This document shows positions 10,546 through 41,881 of a stretch of 64,000 nucleotides of DNA, in pieces (positions within the stretch are counted from its first letter, which is position 1; each line of letters opens with the position of its first letter). The position numbers and the translations under genes are program-made. The notes under the pieces were generated by a model, which was not told the origin of the DNA, did not search any database, and saw nothing but the letters and a program-made list of their open reading frames with translations. Origin of the DNA: a bacterium (lineage in GTDB: Bacteria > Vulcanimicrobiota > Vulcanimicrobiia > Vulcanimicrobiales > Vulcanimicrobiaceae); contig JAJYRH010000010.1 of assembly GCA_021794205.1 (NCBI GenBank), positions 5,566-69,565 of the forward strand. The letters run 5' to 3'.

Positions 10546-11013
10546 ATGCAGGCCTATGCGGCGGCGCTCGGGCTTTTAGCGCGGCGCCGCCTTACCGAGG
10601 CACAGTTACGGACGCGCTTGGAGCGTCGCGGCTACGACGACGATGCCATCGGCACGGCGGTCGCGCGTTGCAAAGCTGAGCGCTATCTTGACGATGCGCT
10701 CTTCGCCGCGCTCTACGTCGAGCGCGCGCGCGACGCGAAAGGGGATCGGCGGCTCGTCGGCGAGCTCGTTCGGCGAGGACTCGATGCGGAGTGCGCGCAG
10801 CGCGCGGTCGCCGACGCACCGCACGGCGAACGCGACCGCTGCCTCCAAGCGCTCGCAAAACTCCGCCGCGCGCAGCCGCACGCAAGTTATCCGAGCCTCG
10901 CGCGCTCGCTCGAACGGCGCGGTTTCCCGGCCTCGCTCATCTACGCCATCCTTCGCGAGACGGCGATCCACGATGGTGCGCTCGAAGGCATCGAGGCCAT
11001 CATTCGCTTCTGA
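10546..11013 (+). CDS. recX: Recombination regulator RecX
   Basis: 155 aa immediately after recA. It shows the RecX-like three-repeat helical pattern (LLARRRLTEAQLRTRLERRGYDDDAI ... RYLDDALFA). Confidence 0.85.
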   Translation: MQAYAAALGLLARRRLTEAQLRTRLERRGYDDDAIGTAVARCKAERYLDDALFAALYVERARDAKGDRRLVGELVRRGLDAECAQRAVADAPHGERDRCLQALAKLRRAQPHASYPSLARSLERRGFPASLIYAILRETAIHDGALEGIEAIIRF

Positions 11014-11019
11014 GAATTC

Positions 11020-11600
11020 TCGCCCGCGCCGCTCGCGACTCGCTGCGGCGAGCATTCTCGCTGGTTGGCACGGTTGCGTCGTCTGCGTCGCGAGCAATGC
11101 GCGATGACGCGCGCGAGCCGTTTGGCCTGGTGCGCGCAGCGAGCGGTTATCTGAAGGCTTTAGCGAGCTGCGCGTGCCGGGCCGCACGGCGAGCGCGGGC
11201 ATCGCCCGCGCCTTTCCCGACTCGCCGCCGCGCGATTTGCAGTTCGTCGCGACCGTTGTGCTCGCGTCACGGGCAACGCGGGGCGTGCTCGCTAAAACCT
11301 TGAGTCAATCGCTCGCCCGCCCCGCATCGCCCGCGCCGCTCGTGACTCGTTGCGGCCAGCATGTTCGCCAGTTAGCGTGGCTGTGCCGCCTGCGTCACGA
11401 CCTATGCGCCGTTGGCGTCGGCGCGATGTGCGTGTGGCCCGGTACGCGCAGCGAGCGATTAACTGAAGGCTTTAGCGAGCTGTGCGTACCGGGCCACACG
11501 CACGGTGCGAGTGAGCATTTAACGATGAACTCAAAGCTTTAGCGAGCTGCGCGTGCCGGGCCACACGGCGAGCGCGGGCATTGCCGGCGTCGCTTGCGAC
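11020..11600. repeat. Degenerate tandem intergenic repeats (unit ~180-190 bp, plus fragments)
   Basis: Copy A (~11020-11201) and copy B (~11327-11516) align end to end (TCGCCCGCGCCGCTCG[C/T]GACTCG[C/T]TGCGGC ... GAAGGCTTTAGCGAGCTG[C/T]GCGT[G/A]CCGGGCC). A more diverged unit lies at 11202-11326. A third copy of the GCTTTAGCGAGCTGCGCGTGCCGGGCCACACGGCGAGCGCGGGCAT module lies at ~11537-11580. Confidence 0.6.
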
Positions 11601-25084: not shown

Positions 25085-28000
25085 ATGGCGACGACGAAGG
25101 CAGCGAAAACCGCAACCACGACGAGCAGCGGGGGGACGAAAGCAAAAGGGAAGCGCTCCGGAGGCGAGGGCAAGAGCACGCCCATGGCCTCGCATTTTCC
25201 GATGCCCACCGGCGCGTTCACCGTTGAGGTTCCGGTCGATCCGGGCCCGAAGCGCTCGCGCCACTCCTTCTCGAAGATCCCGCACGTTCTCGAGCTCCCC
25301 AACCTGATCGAACTCCAGAAGGCGAGTTTCGAGTGGTTCAAGACCGAGGGGCTCGCCGAGGCGTTCGCAGCGATCTCGCCGATTAAAGATTTCACCGGCA
25401 ACCTGATTCTGATGTTCGGCGAGCACTCGCTCGGCGAACCGAAGTTTTCGATCGAGGAGTGCCGCGAGCGCGACATGACCTACAGCGCTCCGCTGCGCGT
25501 CCGCGTCCGCCTCATTACCGCCGAATCCGGCGAAATTAAGGGCATCCCCGACCAAGAGATCTTCATGGGCGATTTCCCGCTCATGACCGATAAGGGCACC
25601 TTCATGATCAACGGAGCCGAGCGCGTGATCGTGAGCCAGTTGGTGCGCTCGCCGGGCTTCTTGGTGGAGAAGGCCAAACCGGCCGAAGGCAAGGGCTACA
25701 CCGCGAAGATTATTCCGAAGCGCGGTGCGTGGGTGAAGTTTTTTGCCGGTGCGAGCGACGAAGGCGACCGTTTCGGCTCGATCAACGTTTCGTTCGATAA
25801 GAGTCGCGCCGTCTCGATGATCGCGTTTCTTCGCGCGGTCTCCTCGCCCGAGCACTTCCCGCTCGACGACGCTCCGGCTACCGCCTACGATGCCGACGGC
25901 CTCACGCGCCCGTACATCGAAAAAGTTCTGCGCGCCTGTGCCGATATGTTCCCCTGGAAGGGCATCGGCCGCCAGGCGACCGCCGCCAGCGATGCCATCG
26001 AAGTTCCGCGTCCGCAATCGCAGCACGAGCGCCAGGTACGCGACGCGTTCGCGACGCTCTTCCCCAATCGTATCGCACGCGGCGAAGCGTTCGATCTCGT
26101 GGTGGATCTGGGGGACAAGAACAAACGTGCGGCCGCTGCGGAAAAACTCAGCGCGCTCTACCACCGGAACTGCGTCTGGAACTCCGACGAAGCGATCCTG
26201 AAACTCTTCGCGGGCACCTATCCGCGCCGCCGCGTTGACGACGGGACCTCGCGCCCGCTCGGGCGCGCTCCGCGCGGTTTGAAGAAGAAGCAGCAGACGA
26301 GCGATCGCGCCGCGGAGCTGCGCGAACTCTTCGATCGGCTCTTCCCCGATGCGAGTCCCGATAATCTCATTCTCAATACGCTCATCGAAGACGGCGACAC
26401 CGTCAATCGCGAAACCGCGCTCGAAGCGGTCTACGGCGCGCTGCGTTACGGCGAGCCGTTCACCTCGCACGAGGATGCCGAGAAGCTCATCCGCACCCTC
26501 CTGTTCGACGAGAACAAGTGCGAACTCGGGAAGGTCGGGCGCTTCAAGGTCACCTCGAAACTGCATTATCGCATTCTCAATCCGGAGAAAGATTCGCGAA
26601 TTCGCGCCAAGAGCGAAAAGAAGGGCTTGAACCTTTCGCTGCTCACCGTCGAAGGCGATCGTTCGGAATTTGAAGTCGATGAATTCGAACCGTTCAGCTA
26701 TCGGCCCGAAGGTGCGCCGGGGCTGACGCGTGCGGATTTCATCGCGATCGTCCGCCGGCTCTGCCGCGTCGCGGTGCGCGATATCTCACCCGACGACGTC
26801 GACCATTTAGGCAATCGTCGCGTGAACACCGTCGGCGAATTGTTACAGAACCAGTTCCGCGTCGGCCTGCAGCGCCTCGAACGCGTCGTGCGCGAGCGCA
26901 TGACGACGCAAGAGATCGAGACGGTCACGCCGCAAGCGCTCATCAATATTCGTCCGGTCGTCGCGGCGATTAAGGAGTTCTTCGGCTCGAGCCAGCTCTC
27001 GCAATTCATGGACCAAACCAACTCGCTGGCGGAGCTCACGCACAAGCGTCGTCTCTCGGCCCTCGGGCCGGGCGGTCTCTCGCGCGAACGCGCGGGCTTT
27101 GAAGCGCGCGACGTCCACACCTCGCACTACGGCCGCATCTGCCCGATCGAAACGCCGGAAGGCCCGAATATCGGTCTCATCGGTTCGTTGGCGACCTACG
27201 GGCGGGTCAACAGCCTCGGATTCATCGAAACGCCGTACCGCATCGTTCGCGACGGACGCGTTACCGATGAGATTCGCTATTTCACCGCCGACGTTGAAGA
27301 AGAATTCATCATCGGTCAGGCCAACACGCCGCTTGCAGCCGACGGCACGATTCTCGCCAAGACGGTCGTCTGCCGTCATCGCGGCGACGATATCGAAGAG
27401 CCGGCGGGCCGCGTCGAGCTGATGGATATCTCGCCCAAGCAGATCGTCTCGGTCGCGACGGCGTTGATTCCGTTCCTCGAGCACGACGATGCAAACCGCG
27501 CACTCATGGGCGCGAACATGCAGCGTCAGGCGGTGCCGTTGCTTCGTCCGCAGGCGCCGATCGTCGGCACCGGCATGGAGTATCGCGCGGCCAAGGACTC
27601 CGGCAGCCTCGTCGTTGCCGAAGAAGCGGGCACGGTGGTCGCCGTCGATGCGACGCAGATCGTTCTCGAGACTGCAGATGGCGAGAAGAACTACGACTTG
27701 CTGAAGTTCGTACGCAGCAACGCCGGCACGTGCATCAACCAGCGCCCGATCGTCACGATGGGCGAGAAGGTCGTTGCCGGGCAGGTGCTCGCCGACGGCC
27801 CGACCTCCGACGAAGGCGAACTCGCGTTGGGCCAAAACGTGCTCGTCGCGTTCATGCCGTGGGAAGGCTACAACTACGAAGACGCTATCTTGATCAGCGA
27901 ACGCATGGTCAAGGAAGATCGCTTCACCTCGATTCATATCGAAGAGTACGAATGCGAAGCGCGCGATACGAAGCTCGGCCCCGAAGAGATCACGCGCGAT

Positions 28001-29473
28001 ATTCCCAACGTCGGCGAAGATGCGCTCAAAGATCTCGACGAGCGCGGCATCATTCGCATCGGTGCGGAGGTGCGCCCCGAGGATATTCTCGTCGGTAAGG
28101 TGACGCCGAAGGGCGAGACCGAACTCACCGCCGAGGAACGTTTGCTGCGCGCCATTTTCGGCGAGAAATCGCGTGAAGTACGCGACACGAGCCTAAAAGT
28201 TCCGCACGGTGAAAAAGGCAAGATCATCGACGTCAAGGTGTTCTCGCGCGAGAACGGCGACGAGCTTTCGCCTGGCGTCAACCACCTCGTTCGCGTCTAC
28301 GTCGCGCAGAAGCGTAAGATTCTGCAGGGCGATAAGATGGCCGGGCGTCACGGCAACAAGGGCGTGATCGCCAAGGTTCTCCCCGAGGAGGACATGCCGT
28401 ACCTCGAGGATGGTACGCCGGTCGATATCGTTCTGAACCCGCTGGGCGTGCCTTCGCGCATGAACATCGGACAGATTCTCGAGACGCATCTCGGGTGGGC
28501 CGCGCGGATGCTCGGCTTCCGGATCGCGACGCCGGTCTTCGACGGTGCGACCGCCGAAGATATCGAGGATTGGTTGCAGGATGCGGGGCTCCCCGCAGAC
28601 GGCAAGGCGTGGTTGCGCGACGGGCGCAGCGGCGATCGTTTCGATCGTCCGATTACCGTCGGCATGATCTACATGCTCAAGCTCGCGCATCTCGTCGACG
28701 ACAAGATCCACGCACGCTCGACCGGCCCGTACTCGATGATCACGCAACAGCCGCTCGGCGGCAAGGCGCAGTTCGGCGGACAGCGCTTCGGCGAGATGGA
28801 GGTCTGGGCGCTCGAAGCGTACGGCGCCGCCTATACGCTGCAGGAGTTGCTGACGGTGAAATCCGACGATGTCGTCGGCCGCGTCAAGACCTACGAAGCG
28901 ATCGTCAAAGGCGAGAACGTGATGGAACCGGGCGTTCCCGAATCGTTCAAGGTGCTGATCAAGGAACTCCAGTCGCTCGCGCTCGACGTCAAAGTGCTGA
29001 CGGAGTCGCGCGAGGAGATCGACACGCGCGAGCTCCGGCTCGGCAACGACGACCTCGGGCTCAACGAAGAGGTCGCGTACGGCGTCCTGATGGGAGCCGA
29101 GGATCCGCTGCTCTCGCAAACGCAGGTTGCCGCGGCGGAAGCCGTTGCGGCGGCGGCGGCGGAGGGAGCGCTTCCCGAGATCGAGGCCGAGGACGAAGCG
29201 GAGGAGGAAGAAGAGGAGATCGACGACAGCAAACCGTTTGTCGCGGGTCCGATTCCGGCAACTCCCGCAGTCGCTCGTACCGCTGAGATCGAAGGCGACG
29301 ACATCTTCACCGCCGATGAAGAACTCGCCGTCGACGACGACCTCGAGGGGCCGCAAGGCTACGAACTCGAGGAAGAAGAGGACGAGATCGTCGATGACGA
29401 TGCACCGGCCTTCGCCGTCGACGATGACGAAGTCGTCTATCCCGATGCAGGCAGCGTCGAGGAAGAGTTCTAA
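25085..29473 (+). CDS. rpoB: DNA-directed RNA polymerase beta subunit, with an acidic C-terminal extension
   Basis: [85 protein letters not shown], and [23 protein letters not shown]. The start could also be M34. Confidence 0.95.
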
Positions 29474-29486
29474 GAACTCTTCCTCG
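29458..29486. terminator. 13-bp palindromic hairpin spanning the rpoB stop codon
   Basis: CGAGGAAGAGTTC-TAA-GAACTCTTCCTCG; the loop is the rpoB TAA. It lies between convergent genes. No clear U-tract. Confidence 0.4.
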
Positions 29487-29515
29487 TAGCTCCAATCGCC
29501 TCGGCGTGGCTTGCG

Positions 29516-29881
29516 TTAGAAAACGCGATACGCGCTGAGGCGATCCTTTTTGTCGAGGCGCACGACGACGCGCGCGTTTCCCTTCGTGAAGTTCGCTTGA
29601 AAGGCGAACTCATTTTTTGCTGCGTTGAACGCGAGCAATTTGAGCCCCTCGTACTTCCCGAGGGCGTTGAACTTATCCGAGAGCAGCCCAACCTCGGCGC
29701 GCGAGATCGACCCAACGCCGGTGAGATCGTGAGCGACCGTCCTGGGGTTGTCGTTGACGATCGCGCGCGTCATGCTGTCGGCGAGTCGCTCCGCCTGGCC
29801 CTGCGGGGCAGCCGCGCAGCCCGCGAAGGCGGTGGCTGCCAGGATGATGGCTGCGGCGCGGGGGTTCAGAGCGTCCCCCAA
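29516..29881 (-). CDS. Small lipoprotein (hypothetical)
   Basis: 121 aa with a lipobox-like LAATAFAGC after a short signal peptide. No family recognised. Confidence 0.5.
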   Translation of the reverse strand: MGDALNPRAAAIILAATAFAGCAAAPQGQAERLADSMTRAIVNDNPRTVAHDLTGVGSISRAEVGLLSDKFNALGKYEGLKLLAFNAAKNEFAFQANFTKGNARVVVRLDKKDRLSAYRVF

Positions 29882-30318
29882 CCGAGACCGTCGCTCGCGA
29901 CGACCTGCGGGTTCCCGTGCGAGCCGGTCGTCGCAACGACGTGGGTGAAGTTCGAGCCGACGTGGAGCGCGGCAAGCTGCCGTTGTTGCTGCGCGACCAC
30001 GCTCTTCTCGAAGGCGAGCTCCTTATGAAGCTCGGCGTTCGCCAAGGCCTCTTGGTGCGCGCTGCGTTCGGCGGCGCGATAGGCGGCCCAGGCGTCGTTC
30101 CGTTGCTGGGCGATCGCCGCTTGCTGGGCGGCGGCGGCCGCTTCGCGCTGGTGGACGACCCGGTTGTGCTGGATGATCAGGTAGGTGGCGGCCCCGATAC
30201 CAAGGAGGATGTTCCGCGTACTCGCCGCGCCATTTGCCAGCGCGGGTCGAGGGAGAAGCCCGGCTCCTAGGCCGAGTACTGCCAGGAGGGCGAGGGCTAT
30301 GGTGAGCTGTCTTTTCAT
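29866..30318 (-). CDS. Secreted Ala/Gln-rich coiled-coil protein (hypothetical)
   Basis: 150 aa with the signal peptide MKRQLTIALALLAVLGLGAGL. No family recognised. Confidence 0.45.
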   Translation of the reverse strand: MKRQLTIALALLAVLGLGAGLLPRPALANGAASTRNILLGIGAATYLIIQHNRVVHQREAAAAAQQAAIAQQRNDAWAAYRAAERSAHQEALANAELHKELAFEKSVVAQQQRQLAALHVGSNFTHVVATTGSHGNPQVVASDGLGWGTL

Positions 30319-30369
30319 GCCGTCGTTCTACCCAAGAGCCCGAAGATGAAAACACCCGGGGCTGGGGCG

Positions 30370-30398
30370 TTGCGCGGGAGCGCCGTGCGACGTATAAT
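30370..30398 (+). promoter_or_regulatory. Candidate independent rpoC promoter (TTGCGC-17-TATAAT)
   Basis: Perfect -10 hexamer TATAAT at 30393-30398 with a 17-nt spacer. It is followed by a ~140-nt leader containing short hairpins (ATGAGG/CCTCAT and CTCGCG/CGCGAG). Confidence 0.45.
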
Positions 30399-30539
30399 GT
30401 GGGTTCGTGCCCCCGCATGAGGTCGCTCCTCATCGGGAGTCGTCCGGAAGCACCGGTGGACCCCCTCGCGCGACCGCGCGAGATCGTGAGTGTCCTGCGG
30501 AAGCGAACGGTACCGGCACGGTGACCTGCGGGAGTCCTC

Positions 30540-33500
30540 GTGAACAACAACCTGATCGACGTGAACAACTTCGACGCGATGCGCATCGGTTTGGCATCGC
30601 CCGAGCACATTCGTGCTTGGTCCTTCGGCGAAGTGAAGAAGCCCGAAACGATTAACTATCGCACGCTCAAGCCCGAGCGCGACGGCCTCTTCTGCGAGAA
30701 GATTTTCGGCCCGACCAAAGACTGGGAGTGCCATTGCGGCAAGTACAAACGCATTCGCTTCAAAGGGATGATCTGCGACCGCTGCGGCGTCGAAATCACC
30801 CGCGCGAAAGTGCGCCGCGAACGGATGGGGCATATCGAACTCGCAACCCCCGTCTGCCATATTTGGTACCTCAAGGGCGTGCCGAGCCGTATCGGCATCC
30901 TGCTCGATATGTCGCCGCGGCAGCTGGAGAAGGTGATCTATTTTGCCGCGTGGGTCGTGATCGATCCCGGCAATACGCCGTTGCAAAAACGCGAGGTGCT
31001 CTCCGAGCAGAAGTATCGCGAACTCTCCGACAAGCATAAAGACGATCGCGGTCGCGTGCAGTTCAAGGCGGGGATGGGCGCCGAAGCGATTCGGGAGCTC
31101 CTGAAGGATCTCAACCTCCAGAAGGTTCGCGACGAACTGCGCTCCGAACTCGACGGCGGCCCGAACGGCTCGCGCCGCACGCGCGCCGGCAAAGATACCG
31201 TCAGCCAGAAGCATCTCAAGACGATCAAGCGTTTGGAGATCGTCGAAGCGCTCATCACCTCGGGCAATAAACCGGAGTGGATGGTACTCGAAGCGGTTCC
31301 GGTCATCGCGCCCGAACTGCGCCCGATGGTGCAGCTCGACGGCGGCCGATTCGCCACCTCCGATCTCAACGATCTCTATCGCCGCGTCATCAATCGCAAC
31401 AATCGCCTCAAGCGTTTGCTCGATCTCAACGCGCCGGAGATCATCATCAAGAACGAAAAGCGCATGCTGCAAGAAGCGGTCGATGCGCTGATCGACAACG
31501 GCCGTCGCGGTCGCCCGGTGACGGGCCCCAACAATCGCCCGTTGAAATCGCTCTCCGATATTCTCAAAGGCAAACAGGGGCGTTTCCGCCAGAACCTACT
31601 CGGAAAGCGCGTCGATTACTCCGGCCGTTCGGTGATCGTGGTCGGCCCGACGCTGAAACTCCACCAGTGCGGTCTCCCCAAAGAGATGGCCCTCGAGCTC
31701 TTCAAGCCGTTCGTGATGAAGAAGCTCGTGGACCGGCAGCTCGCGCATAACATCAAGAGCGCGAAGCGCATGGTCGAGCGCGTGAAGCCCGAGGTGTGGG
31801 ACGTTCTCGAAGAGATCATCAAGGAGCATCCGGTGCTGCTCAACCGCGCCCCGACGCTCCACCGTCTCGGTATTCAGGCCTTCGAGCCGGTTCTCGTCGA
31901 GGGCAAGGCGATCCATTTGCATCCGTTGGTCTGTACGCCGTACAACGCCGATTTCGACGGCGACCAGATGGCGGTCCATCTTCCGCTTTCAGCGGGCGCG
32001 CAAGCCGAAGCGCGGATCCTCATGCTTTCCTCGAACAATACCTTGCTGCCGGCGTACGGAAACGCCGTCTCGATTCCGACGCAAGATATGGTGTTGGGCC
32101 TTTACTACATCACGTTCCAACGCGATGAATATAAGGGCCCGGCGCGCGGCGAGATTACCGAAAACTTCGATATCAGCGATCGGCCGACGAAGAAGAACGC
32201 TCCCACGGCCGATGCTCCGGGCTCGCTGCCGACGTTCTCGAGCTTTAACGAAGTCATGCTCGCGTACGAAAGCCATGCGGTGAAGCTCCAGGAGTGGATC
32301 TACGTGCGCTTTAACGGCGAGTTGATCAAAACGACCGCGGGGCGCGTGATCTTCAATAGCTCGTTCCCCAAACATTGGAACCACGCGTTCGTCAACCAGA
32401 TCATCGATAAGAGTGCGCTCAAGAAGCTCATCACGCTCTGCTACCGGAACTACGGAAATGCAGAGACCGCAATGTTCCTCGACTCGGTCAAAGAGCTTGG
32501 GTTCCGGTACGCAACGCGTTCGGGCACCTCGGTCTCGGTGAGCGATATCGTCGTTCCTCAAGCCAAGCATGCGATCATCGAAAAAGCGCAGAGCGAAGTC
32601 GACGAATTGCATCGCTTCTACGAGCAAGGCTTCATCCGCCAGTCGGAGCAGTACAACAAGACGATCGAGATCTGGTCGAAGGCCTCCGAAGACGTCACGC
32701 AAGCCATGCAGAAGGCGCAGGAGCCGCTCAACCCGGTCTTCATGATGGCGACCTCGGGCGCTCGCGGTTCGATCGCACAGGTCAAGCAGCTCGGCGGTAT
32801 GCGCGGACTGATGTCCGATCCGAGCGGCGAGATTCTCGAAATCCCGGTGAAGGCGTCGCTCAAAGAAGGCTTGACGATGTTCGAGTACTTCATCTCGACG
32901 CACGGCGCTCGTAAGGGGCTCGCCGATACGGCGCTCCGTACCGCCGACTCCGGCTACCTCACGCGCCGCCTCGTCGACGTCGCGCAAGACGTCATCGTTC
33001 GCGAGGACGATTGCGGCACCGCCGACGGCATTCTCGTCTACGATATCCGCGTCGGACGCGAGATTATCGAACCGATCACCGACCGTATCATCGGTCGTCG
33101 CTGCGCCGAGGACGTCGTCCACGGTAAGGAGACGCTCGTCAAGCGCGGTGAAGAGATCGACGAAGATAAGGCCAAGGAAATCGTCGATGCGGGCGTTCCG
33201 ACGGTGAAGATCCGTTCGGTATTGACCTGTAAGTCGAAATACGGCGTCTGCTCGGCGTGCTACGGGCGCGATCTCGCGACCGGCAAACACGTCGATATCG
33301 GCACCGCTGTCGGTATTATCGCCGCGCAATCGATCGGCGAACCGGGCACGCAGCTAACCCTGCGTACCTTCCATACCGGTGGCGTGGCGACCGAGGATAT
33401 CATCACCGGTCTCCCGCGCGTCGAAGAAATCTTCGAAGCGCGCAAACCCAAGGGTGAAGCGATCGTCGCCGAGATCGCGGGACGCGTCTCGTTCGGTGAG

Positions 33501-34397
33501 GATAAGGTCCATCGCACCGTGATCGTCACCGACGAAGCCGCGCTCTACGATGAGAAAAACCAGCCGCCGGTCTACGAGATTCCGCAAGGGACGCATCTCG
33601 CGGTGACCGAGGGGCAACTCGTCGAACCCGGCGACCGTCTCACCGAAGGATCGCTCAATCCGCACGTCATCCTTCGCTTTAAGGGCGAGACCGCGCTTCA
33701 GGATTATCTGGTTCAAGAAGTGCAGAAGGTCTATCGTTCGCAAGGCGTCGATATCAACGACAAGCATATCGAAGTGATCGTGCGTTCGATGCTGCGCAAG
33801 GTGAAGATCACCGACGGCGGTGCGACGCACTTGCTCCCCGGACAGACGGTGGAATCCTCGGTCTTCAACGACGCAAACGAAAAAGCGCGCGCCGAGAAAA
33901 AAGATATCGCGGAAGCACTTCCGGTGCTCCTCGGCGTCACGAAAGCCTCGCTCGCGACCGATTCGTTCCTCTCGGCGGCATCGTTCCAAGAGACGACGCG
34001 CGTCCTCACCGACGCAGCGATTCGCGGAAAATACGATCCGCTGCTCGGGTTGAAAGAGAACGTGATCATCGGCAAACTCATTCCCGCAGGAACGGGTATG
34101 TCGCGCTATCGCAACCTCACCATTCAACCGCAGGGCGAAGAGATCGATCCGGACGGACGTCCGCTTCACCCGCAGTTCGATACCGCGTACGCGATGACGG
34201 CCGACGAAGCGGCCCTCATCGAAGCGATGGCGGTCGGCGGCGGCGATACCAGCCGGCTCGCGTCGGCATACGAGCGCAATAACGCACCCCCGACGGTGCA
34301 TTACGAGGGCGAGTACGCGGAGCACGAATCGGTACACGTCGCGAAACCGCGGACTCAGTACGACCAGCGCAACGGGATCAGCATCGAAGAGCTCTAA
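30540..34397 (+). CDS. rpoC: DNA-directed RNA polymerase beta-prime subunit
   Basis: Zn-finger [22 protein letters not shown], the catalytic motif [13 protein letters not shown], and bridge-helix and trigger-loop segments ([26 protein letters not shown]). GTG start. Confidence 0.95.
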
Positions 34398-34467: not shown

Positions 34468-35037
34468 GTGGCAGAGCCGACTGAGAGAGTAGCGGTGATG
34501 GACCAGCTCGAACTCGCCGCCCGCCTTCCCCGTTATCGCTCTCGTGCCGCCCGCGATGCGATCGCCGGTGCGCTCGGATATCCGAATCGTTGGCAGGAGC
34601 GCTCGCTCGCCGCCGCCGGCGCCGAGCGTTTCGAGGCGCTCTTGGCAGAGGAGGTCCGCGACGGCATTCGCCCGGGGCTGCTCTTCGATGCACGCAATGC
34701 GCTCGTCGCCGAGATGCGTCGGTTCGCGCGCAGCGCGCTCGCGCGACGCCTCCGCCGGCTACGGCCGGTGCAGATTCTCGCGCGCGGTGCGAAGGCGCGC
34801 CCCTTCGATGCGCTTGTCCGCGCTCCGGATGGGCGAAGCGTCGCCATCGTGGTTCGCCCGATGCCGACCGGCGAAGCCCGGCTCGATATCTATCGCGCAC
34901 TCCGCGGAGCGATCGAGCGAGCGGGCGGCAGCGAGGCGCTCGCCGCGCTTCTGTTGATCGACCCGCTCACTGGGGCCTCGCAGAGTATGCGGCTCGACGA
35001 GATCGCGCGGTTACAACGGGGGAGCACCGCGGCGTAA
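34468..35037 (+). CDS. Hypothetical protein (189 aa; start may be ATG 34498)
   Basis: Track ORF in the only sensible frame for this gap. No family recognised. Confidence 0.4.
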   Translation: MAEPTERVAVMDQLELAARLPRYRSRAARDAIAGALGYPNRWQERSLAAAGAERFEALLAEEVRDGIRPGLLFDARNALVAEMRRFARSALARRLRRLRPVQILARGAKARPFDALVRAPDGRSVAIVVRPMPTGEARLDIYRALRGAIERAGGSEALAALLLIDPLTGASQSMRLDEIARLQRGSTAA

Positions 35038-35055: not shown

Positions 35056-35388
35056 GTGGTCGAGGTTTTCTATCGTTATCGCGTTCATCCACAGCAGGCG
35101 TCGGCATTCGAACATGCCTTCGGCTCCAATGGGCCCTTTGCAAACCTGTTTAAAAGTCATCCCGGATATCGGCGCACGCGTCTCTTCCGCCATCGCGCCG
35201 AAGAAGATATCTATCTTTCGATCGATGTGTGGGAGAGTAAGAGCGACTGGGATGCCTTTCGCGCCGCTCACGCCGAACGTTACGCGCAGCTCGATCGCGA
35301 GCTCCATTTGCTCTACCTCGAAGAGCATTTACTCGGCTTCTTTGAAGGCGACGAAGAGTACCGCGAGCCATTCGAGGCCTCCGTCTAA
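35056..35388 (+). CDS. Antibiotic-biosynthesis-monooxygenase (ABM/Dabb-fold) domain protein
   Basis: 110 aa with a ferredoxin-like ABM pattern (FYRYRV...FEHAF ... LSIDVWESKSDWDAFRAAH). Confidence 0.5.
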   Translation: MVEVFYRYRVHPQQASAFEHAFGSNGPFANLFKSHPGYRRTRLFRHRAEEDIYLSIDVWESKSDWDAFRAAHAERYAQLDRELHLLYLEEHLLGFFEGDEEYREPFEASV

Positions 35389-35444: not shown

Positions 35445-35945
35445 ATGAGTACAACCTTTGGCCGCACGTCGACGGCCTCGCAGAGTTCGACGTTGAAAGC
35501 GGGCGATGCCGCCCCCGCGTTCAAGCTTGAAAGCCATCTCGGCGAAAAATTTTCGCTCGCGGATCGGAAGGGCGTCGGCGCGACGGTGCTGGCCTTTATC
35601 CCGTTCGCGTTCACGCCGACTTGAACGAATGAAATGCCCGGCTTCGAACGCGCGCTGCCGCGTTTCGCCGAGCACGGTGCCCAGGTCGTGGGCATCTCCA
35701 TCGATTCAGTACACTCGTTGCGCGCCTGGGCTCTCAGCATGGGCGGCATCACCTACCCGCTGCTCGCGGATTTCTGGCCGCACGGTGAGGTAGCGAAGGC
35801 ATATGGCGTGCTGCGCGACGGCGGCTTTGCCGAGCGAGCGGTCTTCATTATCGATCGGAACGGCGTCGTCCGCTACATCGATATCCATGCGATGGGCGAG
35901 GCGCCCGATCCCGAGCAGATTCTCGAGGAACTCGCAAAACTCTAA
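35445..35945 (+). CDS. AhpE-like peroxiredoxin with in-frame TGA (35622-35624) at the peroxidatic Cys position; candidate selenocysteine peroxiredoxin (alternatively a pseudogene)
   Basis: I translated codon by codon from ATG 35445: MSTTFGRTSTASQSSTLKAGDAAPAFKLESHLGEKFSLADRKGVGATVLAFIPFAFTPT-TGA-TNEMPGFER... This continues in the exact frame of track ORF 35634..35945. PFAFTPT[TGA] matches the Prx motif PxxxTxxC. Downstream, YPLLADFWPHGEVAKAYGV and AVFIIDRNGVVRY resemble M. tuberculosis AhpE. Confidence 0.75.
35639..35670 (+). promoter_or_regulatory. Candidate SECIS-like stem-loop downstream of the in-frame TGA
   Basis: The upper stem pairs 35645-35652 with 35659-35667. It has a bulged U at 35665 and a 6-nt loop CGCUGC. 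A 3-bp lower stem pairs 35639-35641 with 35668-35670. A second hairpin at 35679-35693 (GCCC-AGGUCGU-GGGC) has a GGUC-containing loop but is farther from the UGA. Folded by eye only. Confidence 0.3.
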
Positions 35946-36007: not shown

Positions 36008-36448
36008 ATGAACGCTTTTCATGCCAGCGGACTTCTCGTGGATCCGCAACCCGATCGGAGCCCTCAGCGGATCGCCCTCTATGCGTGGGGCGGTAGCCTC
36101 GCGAACGCCGCCGTCGAGGCCGCGATCGTCGAACTCACGCCGCGCTCCTCCCAGCACTCCGGCTCGTTTGCATTGCTGCTGCGCGGTTCGGGCGTCGCCG
36201 AGCTCCACCCCACGGCGGCCCAGCGTGCTCGCGGTGATATCGCGGCCTACGCGCGCGATCTCGCTCGGCGGGGTGCCACCCGTTCCGTCCACCTCTTCAC
36301 CCGGAGTCTCCCCGAGCCGAGCGCGCTCCGTCGAGCCCGGCGGGCCGGGGTGGAGATCATCGTCAGCCCCATCGACGTGCTCGGCGCGATGACGCTGGTC
36401 CACGGGGAAAGAACCCTGCCTTCAGCGTCGGCCCAGGATGCGGCGTGA
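36008..36448 (+). CDS. Hypothetical protein
   Basis: Track ORF 35987..36448, trimmed to ATG 36008. No family recognised. Confidence 0.35.
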   Translation: MNAFHASGLLVDPQPDRSPQRIALYAWGGSLANAAVEAAIVELTPRSSQHSGSFALLLRGSGVAELHPTAAQRARGDIAAYARDLARRGATRSVHLFTRSLPEPSALRRARRAGVEIIVSPIDVLGAMTLVHGERTLPSASAQDAA

Positions 36449-36464: not shown

Positions 36465-37157
36465 ATGATAGCTATGCAACAACACGCCAAGATTGCCGTC
36501 GTCGACGACGACCGGATGCTGCGCGAGATGATCGAGCTCGGCCTCACCCAAGAAGGCTACGAGGTCAAGAGCGCCTCGGATGGTCAGGCCGCGCTCGATC
36601 TGGTGCGCTCGTTCAATCCCGACGCGATTCTCCTCGATATCATGATGCCGAAGATCGACGGCGTAACGCTGGTGCCGATGCTGCGTAACATCACGCAGGC
36701 GCCGATCCTCATGCTGACCGCAAAGGGCGATCTCGACGACAAGCTCAAGACGTTGGGTTCGGGAGCGGACGACTACGTCGTAAAGCCCTTCTTGTTCGAA
36801 GAACTGATCGCGCGGCTGCAGGCCCATTTGCGACGCCCGCAGATCCACGAAGACGAGCAGATCCGTTGGAACGACCTCGCGCTCGACCTGGGATCGCGCG
36901 AGCTCCGTCGCGGAAGCGAACGGATCGAATTAACGCAACGCGAATTCGATTTGCTCGCCGTGTTTATGCGCGATCCACGACGCATTTTCAGCAAAGAGCA
37001 TCTGCTCGAACTCGTCTGGGGACACGATTTCGAGGGTGGCCCGAATATCGTCGAAACCTACATCTCCTATTTGCGTGCGAAAGTGGACCGGGCGGGCTCG
37101 AGCACCTCGTTTCTCCGAACGGTTCGCGGCGTCGGGTACGGTTTAAGTAACGTATGA
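36465..37157 (+). CDS. OmpR-family response regulator
   Basis: Receiver domain (IAVVDDDRMLREMI ... ILLDIMMPKIDG ... LTAKGD) and a winged-helix domain (LTQREFDLLAVFMRDP ... VETYISYLRAKV). Confidence 0.85.
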   Translation: MIAMQQHAKIAVVDDDRMLREMIELGLTQEGYEVKSASDGQAALDLVRSFNPDAILLDIMMPKIDGVTLVPMLRNITQAPILMLTAKGDLDDKLKTLGSGADDYVVKPFLFEELIARLQAHLRRPQIHEDEQIRWNDLALDLGSRELRRGSERIELTQREFDLLAVFMRDPRRIFSKEHLLELVWGHDFEGGPNIVETYISYLRAKVDRAGSSTSFLRTVRGVGYGLSNV

Positions 37158-38575
37158 CCGGGCGCGGTTCGCTCGCCGTTCGCCTCGCCTCCCTGTACGC
37201 AACGATGCTCGCCGTCGTCGTGCTTTTGGTGATCGTCGCATCCTCGATCGCATTGGTCTTCGAACTCTCGCAGTTCACGCACGATATCATCGTCGCCAAA
37301 CACGACGAGGCGCGCTTCCTCGCCGAGACCGCCGAGCGTGACGGCCAAACGCTCAAGAGCGCCGCACCGCGAATGATTCGCGAACTCTCCGGGATCGGGC
37401 TCGATGTCGCGGTCTTCGACGAGCAGGGAAAATTGCTCGCGGGAGACCCCTCGCTCCATCCCCCGTTGCTCGCCCATATGATCGCCCAACGTCGGCGAGA
37501 GCGGCTGCGCCCGCCTCAGCCTCCCGGAGCGTTCCCCGAACATCGCGAACCGTTCGGCCTCGCCGTCGTCCAGGGCGGCTACGTCGCATTCGTTCCGTCG
37601 ATGCCGCTGGTCTTCGTTGCGCTCTTTCCGTATTGGCGGACGGTTCTCACCATCGGCGTCCTGGCGATTCTCGGAACCTTCGTCGTCGGGCGCATCTTCG
37701 CGCGCGAAGCCTTGCGACCGCTCGATGACGTCGCCGCAGCGCTCCGGTCGCTCGCGCAAGGCGACTACACGCCGCGCACCTTCATCATGGGCGGCGGCGA
37801 CGAGATCGGTAATCTCACCGGCGCGTTTAACGACGCTGCGGCGAACGTCCATCAAGCGATGGAGGAGCGGCGCGCTACCGAGGACCGCATGCGGCGTTTC
37901 GTCGCCGATGCCGGCCACGAATTGCGAACGCCGTTGACCGTCATCAGCGGCTATATCGACGTGCTGCGGCGCGGCGCGTTGAACGACGAGAAAATCGCGC
38001 GACAGATTTTGGGAACCATGACGCTCGAGAAGGAGCACATGCGCAACCTGATCGATCGGCTCGTGCGCCTCTCGCGCCTCGATTCCGAAGCCGCGCCGCT
38101 CGCGGAGCGGCTCGACGTCGCACAATTGCTGCGCGACCAGGTCGATGCGGCGCGCCGTTTTGACGAGCATCGCAATATCGATTACCGCGTCGATGGCGAG
38201 CTCGCGGTCTTTGCCGATCCACGCGAGATCGGTGAAGCGCTCTGGAACGTCGTTGAGAATGCGCTCAAATACGCCCCGGACGCGGCGATCCACCTCCGCG
38301 GCTCGCGCGAAAACGGCCGCGTACGCATCGTCGTTCGCGACGAGGGGCCGGGGATGAGCGAACTCGAGCGACTCCACGCCTTCGAGCGTTTCTACCGCGG
38401 CGATCAACGCGGCGAGATTACCGGTAGCGGCCTCGGGCTCTCGATTGCGAAACGCGCGGTCGAACGCGCGGGTGGACGTATCGAGATCGAGAGTGCACCG
38501 GGGCGCGGCACCGGCGTGACGATCGAACTCGCCGCCGCTCCCGTTTCGTCGCTCGGCGTTCCTCAGCAAATATAA
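37154..38575 (+). CDS. Membrane sensor histidine kinase (2 TM segments + HAMP + HisKA + HATPase_c)
   Basis: FVADAGHELRTPLTVISGYIDVL, NALKYAP, RDEGPGMS and GSGLGLSIAKRAVE, plus two hydrophobic segments and a HAMP-like linker. Confidence 0.85.
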   Translation: MTGRGSLAVRLASLYATMLAVVVLLVIVASSIALVFELSQFTHDIIVAKHDEARFLAETAERDGQTLKSAAPRMIRELSGIGLDVAVFDEQGKLLAGDPSLHPPLLAHMIAQRRRERLRPPQPPGAFPEHREPFGLAVVQGGYVAFVPSMPLVFVALFPYWRTVLTIGVLAILGTFVVGRIFAREALRPLDDVAAALRSLAQGDYTPRTFIMGGGDEIGNLTGAFNDAAANVHQAMEERRATEDRMRRFVADAGHELRTPLTVISGYIDVLRRGALNDEKIARQILGTMTLEKEHMRNLIDRLVRLSRLDSEAAPLAERLDVAQLLRDQVDAARRFDEHRNIDYRVDGELAVFADPREIGEALWNVVENALKYAPDAAIHLRGSRENGRVRIVVRDEGPGMSELERLHAFERFYRGDQRGEITGSGLGLSIAKRAVERAGGRIEIESAPGRGTGVTIELAAAPVSSLGVPQQI

Positions 38576-38599
38576 AGTTCGAGCGGGGATGATGGTGCG

Positions 38600-41500
38600 A
38601 TGAATCGCGCCGTTCTCTCCGCCATCGCTTTCGCGCTCGCTGCTGCCCTCGTTCCCGCCTGGGTCGTCGCGCAAAGCTCGGGCGGTACGATCGCCATTAC
38701 GGTGACCGATGCAAAGACGAAGAACCCCGTCGCGCTCGCACGCGTGGTGCTCGACGGGCCGATTCTCGCGAGCGAAAATGCTACGAGCGCCGGAAAGGTC
38801 ACCTTTACCGAGGCGCCGTCCGGAATCTATCGCGCGCGCGTCTTCGCACGCGGATATCGCGCGGTCACTTCGGCTCCCTTCGAGGTGCTCGACGGCGAGC
38901 GCGTGAACCTCGAGGTCGCGCTCGCTCCGAGCAGCGACTTGCACGTCATCGCCGTCGTTCATTCGGTTTCGAGCGTCCGCATCAGTACGAACTCGATCGA
39001 CGCGAACTCCGCCCAGCGTAAGCTCTCCGGCGATCTCGCCGATGCGCTCTCGAAACTCTCGGGCGTCAGCATTACCTCGAGCAGCGACGACACCGATGCC
39101 GCACAGACGATCTCGCTCGACGGCCACGACGCAAGCCAGACCGCGATGACGCTCGACGGCATTCCGCTCAACGCGCCGGGAAGCGCGGGCGATCTGCGGA
39201 TGTTTGCGAGCGATCTTTTTACCGGCGCAGCGGTACGCCACGGGCCGCAGATCGGTGGGCTCGGCGGCGGCGTCGATTTTCGAACCCTCGAACCGACGCT
39301 CTCCTGGCAGAGCCAGGGCACGCTCGCGACGGGAAGTAACGGGCGCAACAATGAGTCGTTGGGGATCAGCGGTTCGTTGGGAAATCTCGGGATCGCGGCG
39401 ATGAGTACCACGCGCACGAACCCGAGCCTCGCCGACGGCATGCGCTACCTCGACGCGAGCGGACTCGATTACGTCCACGACGGCGGCCGCTGGGTCGCCG
39501 GGGATCTGCTCAAAGCGAACCTGCGTCTCCCGGGCGATCAGACGCTCGCAGCGAGTTTTATCAACTCGACGCGCAGTATCGGGTTGCTCTGTCTGCGCGT
39601 CACGGCGGCGTTGCCCTGCGGCTACGGCCCTGGGAATGACGTCTCGGGCAGCTTCTCGCTCTATTCGCTCGGCGACCAGCTCTTAACCGGTGCGACGGCG
39701 ATCTCGGCGACGCTCTACGGCACCGTCGGCAGCAATCTTTTCGACCTACGGAATCGCTTCGTCGACGGCGTCGCATCGCCGGCGGGGAGCAGCATGCAGA
39801 TGCGTTCGACCGGGTTTACGATCTCCGCCGAGCTTCCGGCGATGCGCAAGCATACGCTCTCGATCCTCGCATACGATACCAACTCCTCGCAGGTATCGAC
39901 GCCGCTCGTTACCAGCAACGCCGCATTCTATAGCGCGCAGCGGCACGGCAGTTACGGCGCCTTGCAACTCACCGATCGCATTCGGGCGAACGACCGCCTC
40001 GCGTTGAATGCATCGTTGGGCCTGACGCACGCGAGCTCTAGCGGCGGAAGCGCGCTGGGCAGCATCGGTGCGAGTTGGCGCGCGTCGGCGAACGATAGCT
40101 ATGCGATCTCGTACGCGCTCTCGGGGAGCGCACCGAATTTCGGCCGGAGCCGTGCGTTGAGCGATCCCGCCTCGCTGCAGTTCGATTGCCAGGGGAGCGA
40201 GAGCGTCGGATACGGGGTCGCGCCCGGGGATCAACCCGGCGCGAGTTCTTCCTCCTCGCTCGACGCGAGCGTCACCCATCGCTTCGCGCGCAGCGCGCTC
40301 TCGCTCGCCCTCTATCGCCAGGTGCAGAGCGGCGTCGTGCTGCCGACCCAGGTCAACGGCAGCGTTCTTCTCGCCGACGGAACGCTCTCGCCGAGCTATC
40401 TCGCGCTGGTGGAGGGCGCCTATGCATCGGCATCGGGATGCGGCGTCGGCGCGCCGCCGATCGCCGCGTCGCAACTCTATTTCGCCACGCCGGTTGGCGG
40501 CGTCACGCGCATCTATTCCGGCGCCGATCTCACCGGGTTCGTGCAAATCGGGAACCTCGTCGCCGAACCGTTCTTCGATATTACCTCCACCACGCTGCGC
40601 TCCAACGATCCGCGCATCGATAACCCGTTCGCCATTGCGATCTCGGGAGCTCAAGCACCGAACGTCCCATTACATCGAGCAGGACTCACGCTCGATTATC
40701 GCGCTCCCCATTCCGCGGTGGAATGGCTCGCCGACGCACAGTACACCGGGGCGAATAATCCGAACAATCTCCCCGCCTACACCACCTACGATGCGGCCGC
40801 AAACGTGAAATTCACCCGCGGTACGCTAACGATTGCGGCGAGTAATATCACCGATGCGTACGCCGGGATCTTTGCGAGTTCGCAGTACGCGGTTCCGTAC
40901 ACGACCCTCGGGGGAACGGAGGTTCCGACGATCGCACGGCCGCTCGCTCCGCGCTCCTATAGCGTCACCTACTCCTTTGCGGTCGGCCGCCACGCCGTTC
41001 TCTCGCTCCCGAGCCCCGCGCGCGGCGGGCCGCGCCGGCGGGGGCCCTTCGCGCGCTTTACGGCGCTGCCGGCTGCGGCGCCGAGCGATCCCTACGCACT
41101 GGCGGCATCGGCGTTCTGCACGCCCGACCGCGCGCGCGTCGCGCGCGGTGTGTTCGATGCATTGCGCGCGCAGGTCGCGCGGGTAGAGAAGGCGCGCGCC
41201 GCTTCGCCTACTGCGGCGATCGTTCTCTCCTCGCCGGCGGGCGTGACCTTTACCTACCATCCGCTGGCGACGGGATACGCCGTGTCGATCGCTCCGACGA
41301 AGATCGATGACGTTCGCGCGCTCTTTACCTGCGCGACGATCCACCGAACCGATGCCGCGATCGCCGCCGGGCGAGGGCTCTACGTTGCTCCGCCGGCGAG
41401 CTTCTTCCGGCCGGAGATTTCATTTTCGCCGAGCGTGGGACTCTATTTTATCCGTCGGCAGCCGCAGCCCGGGAAAGAAAATTTCCGCGTCTTCACGCTC

Positions 41501-41881
41501 GCGGCGCAGGCCCCGAAAGAACCATTCGCCGCGATCGCCGGGCCGCAGTGTACCACCGCTCTGCGCGATGTTGCGATACAGAGCCTCGACGATCTGCGCG
41601 CGCATTTTACGGCGGCAACGCCATCGACGCGCTGGCAGATCGTCGCACACGGGTCGGGAGCGAAGCGATGGTTCGCGCTGACCCCCAACGATCTCGGCGA
41701 TTTCGGCGCACTCATGGCCTGCGCCCACGTTGCAGCGGCGACCGCCGTGCAATTGCAGGCGCGTGGGCTCGGTGGCACGCCGCCCCCAGAGCTGAATTAC
41801 GCCCCCTCGATCGGGCTCTATATCGAGCGGCGCACTCCGCCGCCACCGCCGGGAGGGGCGCCTCCGCCGAACGGCGCATGA
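38600..41881 (+). CDS. TonB-dependent-receptor-like outer-membrane protein with an N-terminal CarboxypepD_reg-like domain and a ~300-aa C-terminal extension
   Basis: Signal peptide; GTIAITVTDAKTKNPVALARVVL (carboxypeptidase-regulatory-like); plug-like ISLDGHDASQTAMTLDGIPLNAPGS...FRTLEP; a long beta-rich region ending in the barrel-terminus-like RSYSVTYSF (ends at 40978); then a duplicated ~130-aa module and a Pro-rich tail. Confidence 0.6.
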   Translation: MNRAVLSAIAFALAAALVPAWVVAQSSGGTIAITVTDAKTKNPVALARVVLDGPILASENATSAGKVTFTEAPSGIYRARVFARGYRAVTSAPFEVLDGERVNLEVALAPSSDLHVIAVVHSVSSVRISTNSIDANSAQRKLSGDLADALSKLSGVSITSSSDDTDAAQTISLDGHDASQTAMTLDGIPLNAPGSAGDLRMFASDLFTGAAVRHGPQIGGLGGGVDFRTLEPTLSWQSQGTLATGSNGRNNESLGISGSLGNLGIAAMSTTRTNPSLADGMRYLDASGLDYVHDGGRWVAGDLLKANLRLPGDQTLAASFINSTRSIGLLCLRVTAALPCGYGPGNDVSGSFSLYSLGDQLLTGATAISATLYGTVGSNLFDLRNRFVDGVASPAGSSMQMRSTGFTISAELPAMRKHTLSILAYDTNSSQVSTPLVTSNAAFYSAQRHGSYGALQLTDRIRANDRLALNASLGLTHASSSGGSALGSIGASWRASANDSYAISYALSGSAPNFGRSRALSDPASLQFDCQGSESVGYGVAPGDQPGASSSSSLDASVTHRFARSALSLALYRQVQSGVVLPTQVNGSVLLADGTLSPSYLALVEGAYASASGCGVGAPPIAASQLYFATPVGGVTRIYSGADLTGFVQIGNLVAEPFFDITSTTLRSNDPRIDNPFAIAISGAQAPNVPLHRAGLTLDYRAPHSAVEWLADAQYTGANNPNNLPAYTTYDAAANVKFTRGTLTIAASNITDAYAGIFASSQYAVPYTTLGGTEVPTIARPLAPRSYSVTYSFAVGRHAVLSLPSPARGGPRRRGPFARFTALPAAAPSDPYALAASAFCTPDRARVARGVFDALRAQVARVEKARAASPTAAIVLSSPAGVTFTYHPLATGYAVSIAPTKIDDVRALFTCATIHRTDAAIAAGRGLYVAPPASFFRPEISFSPSVGLYFIRRQPQPGKENFRVFTLAAQAPKEPFAAIAGPQCTTALRDVAIQSLDDLRAHFTAATPSTRWQIVAHGSGAKRWFALTPNDLGDFGALMACAHVAAATAVQLQARGLGGTPPPELNYAPSIGLYIERRTPPPPPGGAPPPNGA

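Follow-up and report, generated by a model that had tools for sequence, protein, structure and literature searches.

How should a TGA codon be read when it falls at the catalytic position of an otherwise open peroxiredoxin frame? This question is raised by positions 35445..35945 (+ strand) of a 64-kb stretch of bacterial contig JAJYRH010000010.1 (hereafter the window, meaning the whole 64,000 nt analysed, to which all coordinates refer). A complete AhpE-like peroxiredoxin gene of 166 residues is obtained there if codon 60, TGA, is read as selenocysteine (Sec). A sequence-only reading of this DNA had proposed a Sec/Cys selenoprotein. Our comparisons support that interpretation through a conserved TGA/Cys pair at this codon, frames that are intact and under selection, and an RNA structure found only in the Sec-type genes. 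Based on these three lines, the locus is very probably a functional gene of Eremiobacterota (WPS-2, Baltobacteraceae) whose UGA is decoded as Sec, giving an ~18-kDa AhpE-type peroxiredoxin.

A complete peroxiredoxin frame with TGA at the catalytic codon

The frame opens with ATG at 35445 and runs through 59 sense codons to the TGA (35622..35624), which is followed by T-N-E, an ATG at 35634 and, as the last of 166 codons, TAA at 35943-35945. The open reading frame (ORF) listed for the locus (103 aa) starts at the second ATG, three codons past the TGA. The earlier description of a frame interrupted by TGA only, with 59 codons before it and three between it and the listed ATG, was exact. The start (MSTT...) is also present in a relative of 79% identity (L167). 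With Cys substituted at codon 60, the product matched Pfam AhpC-TSA (PF00578) over profile positions 2-124 of 124 (E = 2.5e-36; 124.8 bits vs. a cutoff of 26).

The TGA is preceded by F-I-P-F-A-F-T-P-T, and translation confirmed that it occupies the peroxidatic Cys position, where the homologous codons are TGA or TGC/TGT; it is the proposed Sec codon of an active-site motif P53-F-A-F-T57-P-T-U60 (PxxxTxxU; 35601..35624, +). P53, T57 and [TGA]60 reproduce the PxxxTxxC pattern of PF00578, together with an aligned R131. The strings given earlier for M. tuberculosis AhpE hold up in the PDB alignment, which pairs FPLAFTGIC with IPFAFTPT[C] and shows D109-F-W-P-H-G114 (35769..35786, +), further downstream, to be identical. 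Arg131 (codon CGA, 35835..35837, +) aligns with an identical Arg of M. tuberculosis AhpE (a-e-R-a-v-f vs. a-n-R-g-t-f), and we take it to be the conserved active-site Arg of peroxiredoxins. The window protein contains no Cys, and Sec60 would be its only redox residue.

TGA is an ordinary stop codon in this window, as previously stated: it terminates 13 of the 33 longest non-overlapping ORFs, with TAG at the end of 11 and TAA at the end of 9. One alternative is that the locus encodes a pair of small proteins, of 59 aa and 103 aa, that act independently or are assembled post-translationally. All database entries seen call it so, and an ATG three codons past the TGA would suit such an arrangement. 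The Met encoded by this ATG, however, belongs to a conserved (E/Q)-(M/I)-P motif; many orthologues have Ile or a different residue there, and those without the Met are called from later Met codons, which results in 91-aa products. In addition, one Pfam domain spans the junction (positions 1-39 upstream and 42-124 downstream), and the catalytic residue is missing from both pieces. Two separate proteins are therefore extremely unlikely.

The sequence-only reading had also anticipated that standard gene callers would miss such a gene. Every database copy seen is split at the TGA, into pieces of 50-66 aa and 91-104 aa, across at least five phyla, with fused forms (see below) called as 197-207 aa. 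Public records name them 'redoxin domain-containing protein' or else 'alkyl hydroperoxide reductase/thiol specific antioxidant', and none of those seen joins the two halves.

TGA and Cys forms among relatives

The DNA of relatives was obtained from genomes, metagenomes and specific contigs, and the codon aligned with position 60 was read in 177 sources. TGA was found in 66 of these, representing 57 distinct sequences, and a Cys codon (TGC or TGT) in 109. The TGA sources span at least five phyla and include Eremiobacterota-like contigs (the phylum of the window), many Anaerolineae and other Chloroflexota, Limnocylindria, the isolate Sulfobacillus harzensis DSM 109850, a Bacilli metagenome-assembled genome (MAG) and Acidobacteriota MAGs. 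Cys was found in Eisenbacteria, Syntrophia/Desulfobacterota, Omnitrophica and the actinobacterial AhpE group. In a protein search for homologues (best 120 matches), the closest full-length homologues among the matches listed (P0002, P0003, P0005 and P0006; 54-61% identity) all carry Cys at this codon, and dozens of listed homologues at 57-90% identity are annotated as fragments of 91-105 aa that correspond to the C-terminal 53-62% of the query. The exact 103-aa fragment occurs on 21 contigs; the six that we read show the same split into 59 aa and 103 aa, with 0-1 nt differences over 498 nt. The fragment and the neighbouring RpoC fall in clusters whose named members are from Candidatus Eremiobacteraeota/Baltobacteraceae MAGs and a mine-drainage metagenome.

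Could the TGA be a nonsense mutation (TGC/TGT to TGA) in an ordinary Cys-peroxiredoxin whose fragments are now decaying? TGA is one step from either Cys codon, and the Sec machinery is unconfirmed for this genome. One relative, L103 (a metagenomic contig), carries an additional in-frame TAG eight codons past its TGA. Against a pseudogene stands the retention of TGA in 57 distinct sequences that span five phyla or more. Both flanks are open in every TGA-type gene with complete sequence, and L103 is the only one of the 57 with an extra stop, so that the decay which had been named as the contrary case (extra stops or frameshifts in relatives) is not what we see. The ratio of nonsynonymous to synonymous change (pN/pS) also argues against it, at 0.19-0.57 upstream of the TGA (ten pairs; 44 codons, 24 in one pair) and 0.09-0.37 downstream with the hairpins described below excluded. 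Since the upstream values are of the same order as the downstream ones and not ~1, the upstream segment is under purifying selection and does not behave as a dead N-terminus. A further argument is the RNA structure specific to the TGA-type genes, which is selected at synonymous sites. At the level of the clade the pseudogene reading is already disfavoured, and we regard it as very improbable; the comparisons indicate that the TGA is not a lesion. The alignment of orthologues thus bears out the earlier expectation of a column that is Cys (TGC/TGT) in some relatives and TGA in others, with frames intact and selected on both sides.

In L103 (2033-2122) the stretch after the TGA reads SAQIPSY*EQ and both hairpins are intact; the extra stop reflects either genuine pseudogenization or faulty assembly.

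A rough neighbour-joining tree required at least nine Sec/Cys switches, with Cys forms interspersed among Sec forms, which fits the published view of Sec-peroxiredoxins (PMC1794560). In the same tree, the actinobacterial AhpE group with FTGVC falls outside the smallest clade that holds all Sec forms.

RNA structure downstream of the TGA

Two hairpins were identified past the TGA (+ strand). Hairpin 1 (proximal; 35635..35674) comprises ~14 bp in three helical segments with an apical loop CGCUGC (35653-35658) located 28 nt past the UGA. Hairpin 2 (distal; 35676..35696) has an 8-bp stem, GGUGCCCA/UGGGCAUC, and a loop GGUCG (35684-35688) located 59 nt past the UGA. The stem-loops noted in the sequence-only reading exist as parts of these: 35639-35670 is the middle of hairpin 1 and 35679-35693 is the core of hairpin 2. 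The hairpin-2 core, CCCAGGTNNTGGG, occurs once in the 64 kb vs. 0.01 expected.

The segment from the TGA to QV[LV]GIS is free of indels, so that the 57 distinct TGA-type sequences align gap-free, and the two hairpins fold in 56 of them. To separate RNA constraint from protein constraint, codons were resampled synonymously with the peptide and the G+C content at third codon positions (GC3) of each gene kept. Median z-scores in the TGA-type genes were -2.63 for hairpin 1 and -3.32 for hairpin 2, compared with 0.00 and -0.10 in 108 Cys-type genes (Mann-Whitney p = 1.5e-18 and 3e-22, respectively). The z-score was below -2 in 92% of the sequences for hairpin 2 and in 67% for hairpin 1. An RNAalifold consensus recovered hairpin 2 with 98.6% of cells paired and compensatory changes at three pairs, one of which occurs as GC (34 sequences), AU (14) or GU (2). 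Hairpin 1 was judged by the per-sequence energy test, because shifts of its pairing register defeat any one fixed structure.

The peptide [ATV]QV[LV]G lies over hairpin 2 in 55 of 57 TGA-type proteins vs. 10 of 108 Cys-type homologues. Where this same peptide is encoded, the hairpin-forming codons CCAGGTnnTGG are used in 52/55 TGA-type and in 0/10 Cys-type genes, with mean folding energies of -11.0 and -3.3 kcal/mol, respectively. It appears from these alignments that RNA constraint dictates the protein sequence at hairpin 2. Between the window and L167 (the closest pair), synonymous divergence falls ~3-fold over the hairpins, from 0.62-0.69 to 0.21.

A covariance model scored the training TGA-type loci at 44-94 bits, held-out TGA-type loci at 36-74 bits and Cys-type loci at 36 bits or less. 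The separation is incomplete, given that the held-out Eremiobacterota-like L167-169 score 36 bits, equal to the best Cys-type locus. The model found nothing convincing outside these genes in ~2.2 Mb. The hairpin-2 motif had 20 matches elsewhere in 4.6 Mb (both strands), with no TGA association. Collectively, these comparisons point to a structured RNA element that is tied to the TGA, as would be expected of a bacterial Sec insertion sequence (SECIS). The conserved structure that a selenoprotein gene should show was therefore found, covarying past the TGA in TGA-type genes and absent from Cys-type genes.

Two screens for further candidates were set aside. A search of 1.4 Mb of Sec-type flanks for other in-frame TGA codons followed by a GGU-loop hairpin at 8-16 nt yielded six candidates with junk-like translations. 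A GC3 screen for other TGA-interrupted ORFs in the window yielded 29 candidates; this criterion is non-discriminating at 64% G+C.

Weighing the Sec reading

A number of observations weigh against decoding as Sec, or against the form of it that we prefer. Folding of the window sequence alone (-33.2 kcal/mol) gave a modest z of -1.75, with 7 of 200 dinucleotide shuffles folding as well, and the weight of the evidence rests on the comparison with other loci. In a fixed register, hairpin 1 pairs in only 51.6% of cells across clades, the register shifting between clades, and its loops share no motif. The published bacterial SECIS model requires an apical loop of 3-9 nt with a G among its first two nucleotides (usually G[G|U]), a UGA-to-loop distance of 16-37 nt and a minimum free energy (MFE) of -7.5 kcal/mol or below (PMC13188914); the GGU loop of hairpin 2, at 59-60 nt past the UGA, lies outside that distance. 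Once hairpin 1 is closed, the unpaired stretch between the UGA and hairpin 2 has a mode of 10-11 nt (8-14 nt in 38 of 56 sequences), and this value of ~11 nt is the mode within a broad range of 4-16 nt among the MFE folds, with one outlier of 29. No Rfam family was detected in the whole 64-kb window at gathering thresholds, and a search of 35560-35760 at E values up to 10 returned chance-level matches only; the element thus has no Rfam match.

The search for Sec machinery was likewise negative in the DNA covered. Probes for E. coli SelD, SelA and SelB scored 621, 632 and 921 bits against the NCBIfam equivalogs, which validated them. With these probes, tblastn of the window plus 166 loci (2.19 Mb) returned nothing below E = 0.06, and a positive control gave the expected result. 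ARAGORN predicted no tRNA gene in the 64-kb window, and none of the 14 tRNAs in the window and the fetched loci was tRNA-Sec. Neighbour annotations on ten further relatives' contigs contained no sel genes. The literature search found no report of Sec use in Eremiobacterota. Finally, no homologue of the glutaredoxin domain, which we suggest below as a reductant, is encoded in the 64-kb window.

Some of the other TGA-carrier lineages are documented Sec users with SelA, SelB and SelD: Sec machinery or selenoproteins are listed for Anaerolinea thermophila, Sulfobacillus species and several Acidobacteria (PMC5029168 Tables S1 and S2).

The RNA and frame comparisons indicate UGA read-through and a role for the downstream RNA; they do not identify the inserted residue, and selA and selD are unverified in this genome. 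The UGA might be recoded as something other than Sec, either by a SelB-like factor with a Cys-charged tRNA carrying a UCA anticodon or by structure-promoted read-through as Trp, Cys or Gly. Cys-for-Sec recoding has been proposed in bacteria. On the other hand, the codon falls at the redox-active residue in a family known to alternate between Sec and Cys (PMC13188914, PMC1794560), the hairpin-2 loop fits the SelB-type G[G|U] pattern, and the carrier lineages include the Sec users named above. Recoding to another residue is in our estimation quite unlikely, and Sec is by far the most probable reading of the codon.

Proposed decoding and the role of the two hairpins

For the decoding itself, we infer a dependence on SelB, the part played by either hairpin and the nature of the reductant. 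Translation would start at ATG 35445. From the first base of the UGA to the start of hairpin 1 the distance is 11-13 nt, so that the downstream RNA should still be folded when the UGA is in the ribosomal A site. The folded RNA would recruit SelB with Sec-tRNA(Sec), and Sec would be inserted in place of termination. In hairpin 1 (~40 nt) the sequence is variable, and conservation is confined to the ability to pair. Hairpin 2 is nearly invariant, and its A-U-closed GGU loop resembles the SelB-binding loop of E. coli fdhF. In the finished protein, Sec60 would reduce peroxide and become a selenenic acid, which, as in 1-Cys peroxiredoxins, would be recycled by a thiol protein acting from outside.

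Hairpin 2 passes the rules for loop, stem and energy in 50 of 51 sequences, and there is almost no variation in its loop. The strict form of the loop, G[G|U], occurs in 56/57 sequences for hairpin 2 and in 4/57 for hairpin 1. In E. coli fdhF, whose SECIS sequence was checked against 5,413 genomes, the corresponding distance from the UGA to the minihelix is 11 nt. Hairpin 2 resembles that minihelix in its A-U closing pair, its GGU... loop and a short G+C-rich stem (GCA-GGUC-UGC in fdhF). The two differ in position: the fdhF minihelix begins 11 nt past the UGA with loop positions 22-25, whereas hairpin 2 begins at 55-56 with its loop at 63-67. They also differ in that E. coli fdhF has no ~40-nt hairpin in between, while the window has one, and in that the window lacks an evident bulged U.

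We favour a bipartite signal in which hairpin 2 would provide the SelB contact and hairpin 1 would serve as a clamp that restores the distance. Taken further, the arrangement could represent a new class of bacterial SECIS, in which a SelB-binding minihelix ~60 nt past the UGA is brought to working distance by a ~40-nt hairpin of free sequence and selected closure. We put this forward tentatively, as a proposal that falls somewhat short of an even chance. The literature search returned no description of a bacterial SECIS with two stem-loops. In BSepDB, 12.6% of the catalogued bacterial selenoprotein genes are without a canonical SECIS (PMC13326102).

Another possibility, which concerns the mechanism only and is compatible with Sec at codon 60, is that hairpin 1 is an ordinary single-hairpin SECIS and hairpin 2 an accessory to pausing, mRNA stability or SelB pre-loading. 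The apical loop of hairpin 1 lies 24-30 nt past the UGA, and hairpin 1 passes all the basic bSECISearch rules in 32 of 51 sequences, the window included (loop CGCUGC, 28 nt, -19.3 kcal/mol). One divergent TGA-type sequence, L133, is without hairpin 2, and the loop of its hairpin 1 contains GU. Nevertheless, the absence of a common motif among hairpin-1 loops (strict G[G|U] in 4/57) and the drift of the pairing register between clades weigh against it, and hairpin 2 is the more constrained of the two (92% vs. 67% with z below -2) with its almost invariant loop. A single-hairpin SECIS is a possible explanation that we find somewhat doubtful, and the bipartite signal remains our preferred reading.

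In L133 (989-1078; FTGG-U-SNQ...), a 7-bp hairpin lies at the canonical distance and carries the loop CGUGC. This sequence may have changed from Cys to Sec independently, with a SECIS of its own.

Family placement and comparison with known Sec-peroxiredoxins

The sequence-only reading had assigned the gene to the AhpE-like peroxiredoxins, and the PDB search agrees with it. The top seven PDB matches are AhpE (E = 5e-27 to 8e-26, aligned over residues 14-163), consisting of six M. tuberculosis Rv2238c/MT2298 entries, with Rv2238c the best match at E = 5e-27, and 4xih (labelled AhpC/TSA family protein). The next PDB class, 2-Cys peroxiredoxins, is nine orders of magnitude weaker (E = 6e-18). None of the NCBIfam subfamily models, of which none is AhpE-specific, reached its cutoff (best NF009668, 67.9 bits vs. 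211). Based on these alignments, the window gene most likely belongs to the AhpE-like branch. The gene is not a member of the curated selenoprotein families PrxU (NF040737; 52 bits vs. a cutoff of 270) or Prx-SUH (NF045827; 43.9 bits vs. 298), for which it scores below the curated cutoffs.

M. tuberculosis AhpE (Rv2238c; 1XVW, 1XXU, 4X0X) and the window protein have in common (F/I)PxAFTxx[C/U], DFWPHG, the aligned Arg, a size of ~150-170 aa and a single redox residue. The residue itself is Cys in the former, whereas Sec is proposed in the latter. AhpE is recycled by mycoredoxin and mycothiol; the window family hints at a glutaredoxin-type partner instead.

Sec-peroxiredoxins (PF00578, TxxU/PxxxTxxU) are an established and experimentally verified prokaryotic selenoprotein family (PMC13188914, PMC1794560, PMC5029168), for which PMC13188914 names the PxxxTxxU motif and PrxU of Eubacterium acidaminophilum is the founding case. 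Surveys report 91 of them across 78 organisms, with several independent Cys-to-Sec conversions, and Sec users occur outside anaerobes too (PMC5029168). The novelty claimed by the sequence-only reading was thus overstated, because the TxxU family was already established and Sec use is not limited to anaerobes (PMC5029168). This kind of selenoprotein is known, and what is new here is a member in the AhpE-like branch; our literature search found no description of a Sec-AhpE. With PrxU-type Sec-peroxiredoxins, the window gene shares the Pfam family, the position of the proposed Sec after Thr-x-x, the Sec/Cys alternation and, in putative form, a SECIS within the coding region. It differs from them in its AhpE-like branch, in having no resolving Cys and in a GGU-loop hairpin 59-60 nt past the UGA. 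Its host also differs, as a member of an aerobic-soil and mine-drainage phylum without reported Sec use.

Glutaredoxin fusions and a possible reductant

Of the 53 distinct TGA-type orthologues, 27 have the peroxiredoxin fused to a glutaredoxin domain with CxxC at the C-terminus (Pfam PF00462, E = 7e-16). Annotated Chloroflexota loci are among these fusions; the window gene is a stand-alone form. Among 26 stand-alone Sec-type orthologues, 19 have a peroxiredoxin domain without any Cys. By the 'Rosetta stone' logic, the fusion in 27/53 orthologues hints that the stand-alone forms also use a glutaredoxin-type reductant, and the recycling partner of Sec60 would probably be a glutaredoxin-like protein. 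PGdx of Haemophilus influenzae is a known fusion of a Prx5-type peroxiredoxin with glutaredoxin. The 27 orthologues are alike in their C-terminal CxxC glutaredoxin, which implies intramolecular recycling of the oxidised residue; PGdx, however, is Prx5-type with Cys, whereas the fusions described here are AhpE-like with Sec.

An example of the fused form is L009:9998-10759 (an Anaerolinea MAG), and others are present in L008, L011, L012, L016, L018-L022, L024, L029 and L031, with glutaredoxin sites such as YCTSWCPDC.

Gene neighbourhood and implications

Upstream of the peroxiredoxin gene are a 179-aa ORF with no Pfam match (34498-35037) and an ABM (antibiotic biosynthesis monooxygenase-like) ORF (35056-35388), and their order is kept in L167-L169, the 79%-identical relative. 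A 136-aa ORF with no Pfam match (36038-36448) follows downstream; at its position, L167-L169 have an unannotated ORF of 153-164 aa. The peroxiredoxin and its flanking ORFs may form an operon. Further out, Pfam annotation of an identical contig (L001) places rpoB and rpoC upstream (25085-34397) and an OmpR-type response regulator, a HAMP/HisKA histidine kinase and a TonB-dependent receptor with CarboxypepD_reg downstream (36473-41881). In L170-L172 (~10524-11030, - strand), a separate group of TGA carriers, the Sec-peroxiredoxin adjoins a gene for methionine sulfoxide reductase A (PF01625), which lies on the opposite strand; this makes an oxidative-damage repair neighbourhood.

What goes beyond the ordinary at this locus is the host phylum, the breadth of the misannotation and a proposed bipartite SECIS with non-canonical spacing. 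Splitting at the TGA amounts to a widespread annotation error that leaves the catalytic residue invisible to functional predictions. If the new SECIS class is real, the 16-37 nt spacing rule of SECIS-based gene finders would miss a class of elements, and it might explain part of the ~13% of bacterial selenoprotein genes without a canonical SECIS (PMC13326102). The two-hairpin layout is a natural test case for the distance and geometry of the SelB hairpin relative to the UGA, with a bearing on SECIS prediction and on the engineering of Sec insertion. Likewise, the stand-alone, glutaredoxin-fused and close Cys-type homologues offer matched pairs for measuring the benefit of Sec in a 1-Cys peroxiredoxin. 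For the organism itself, this would be the first indication found of Sec use in Eremiobacterota (WPS-2), a largely uncultured phylum of soil and mine drainage, where the Sec would be spent on peroxide defence.

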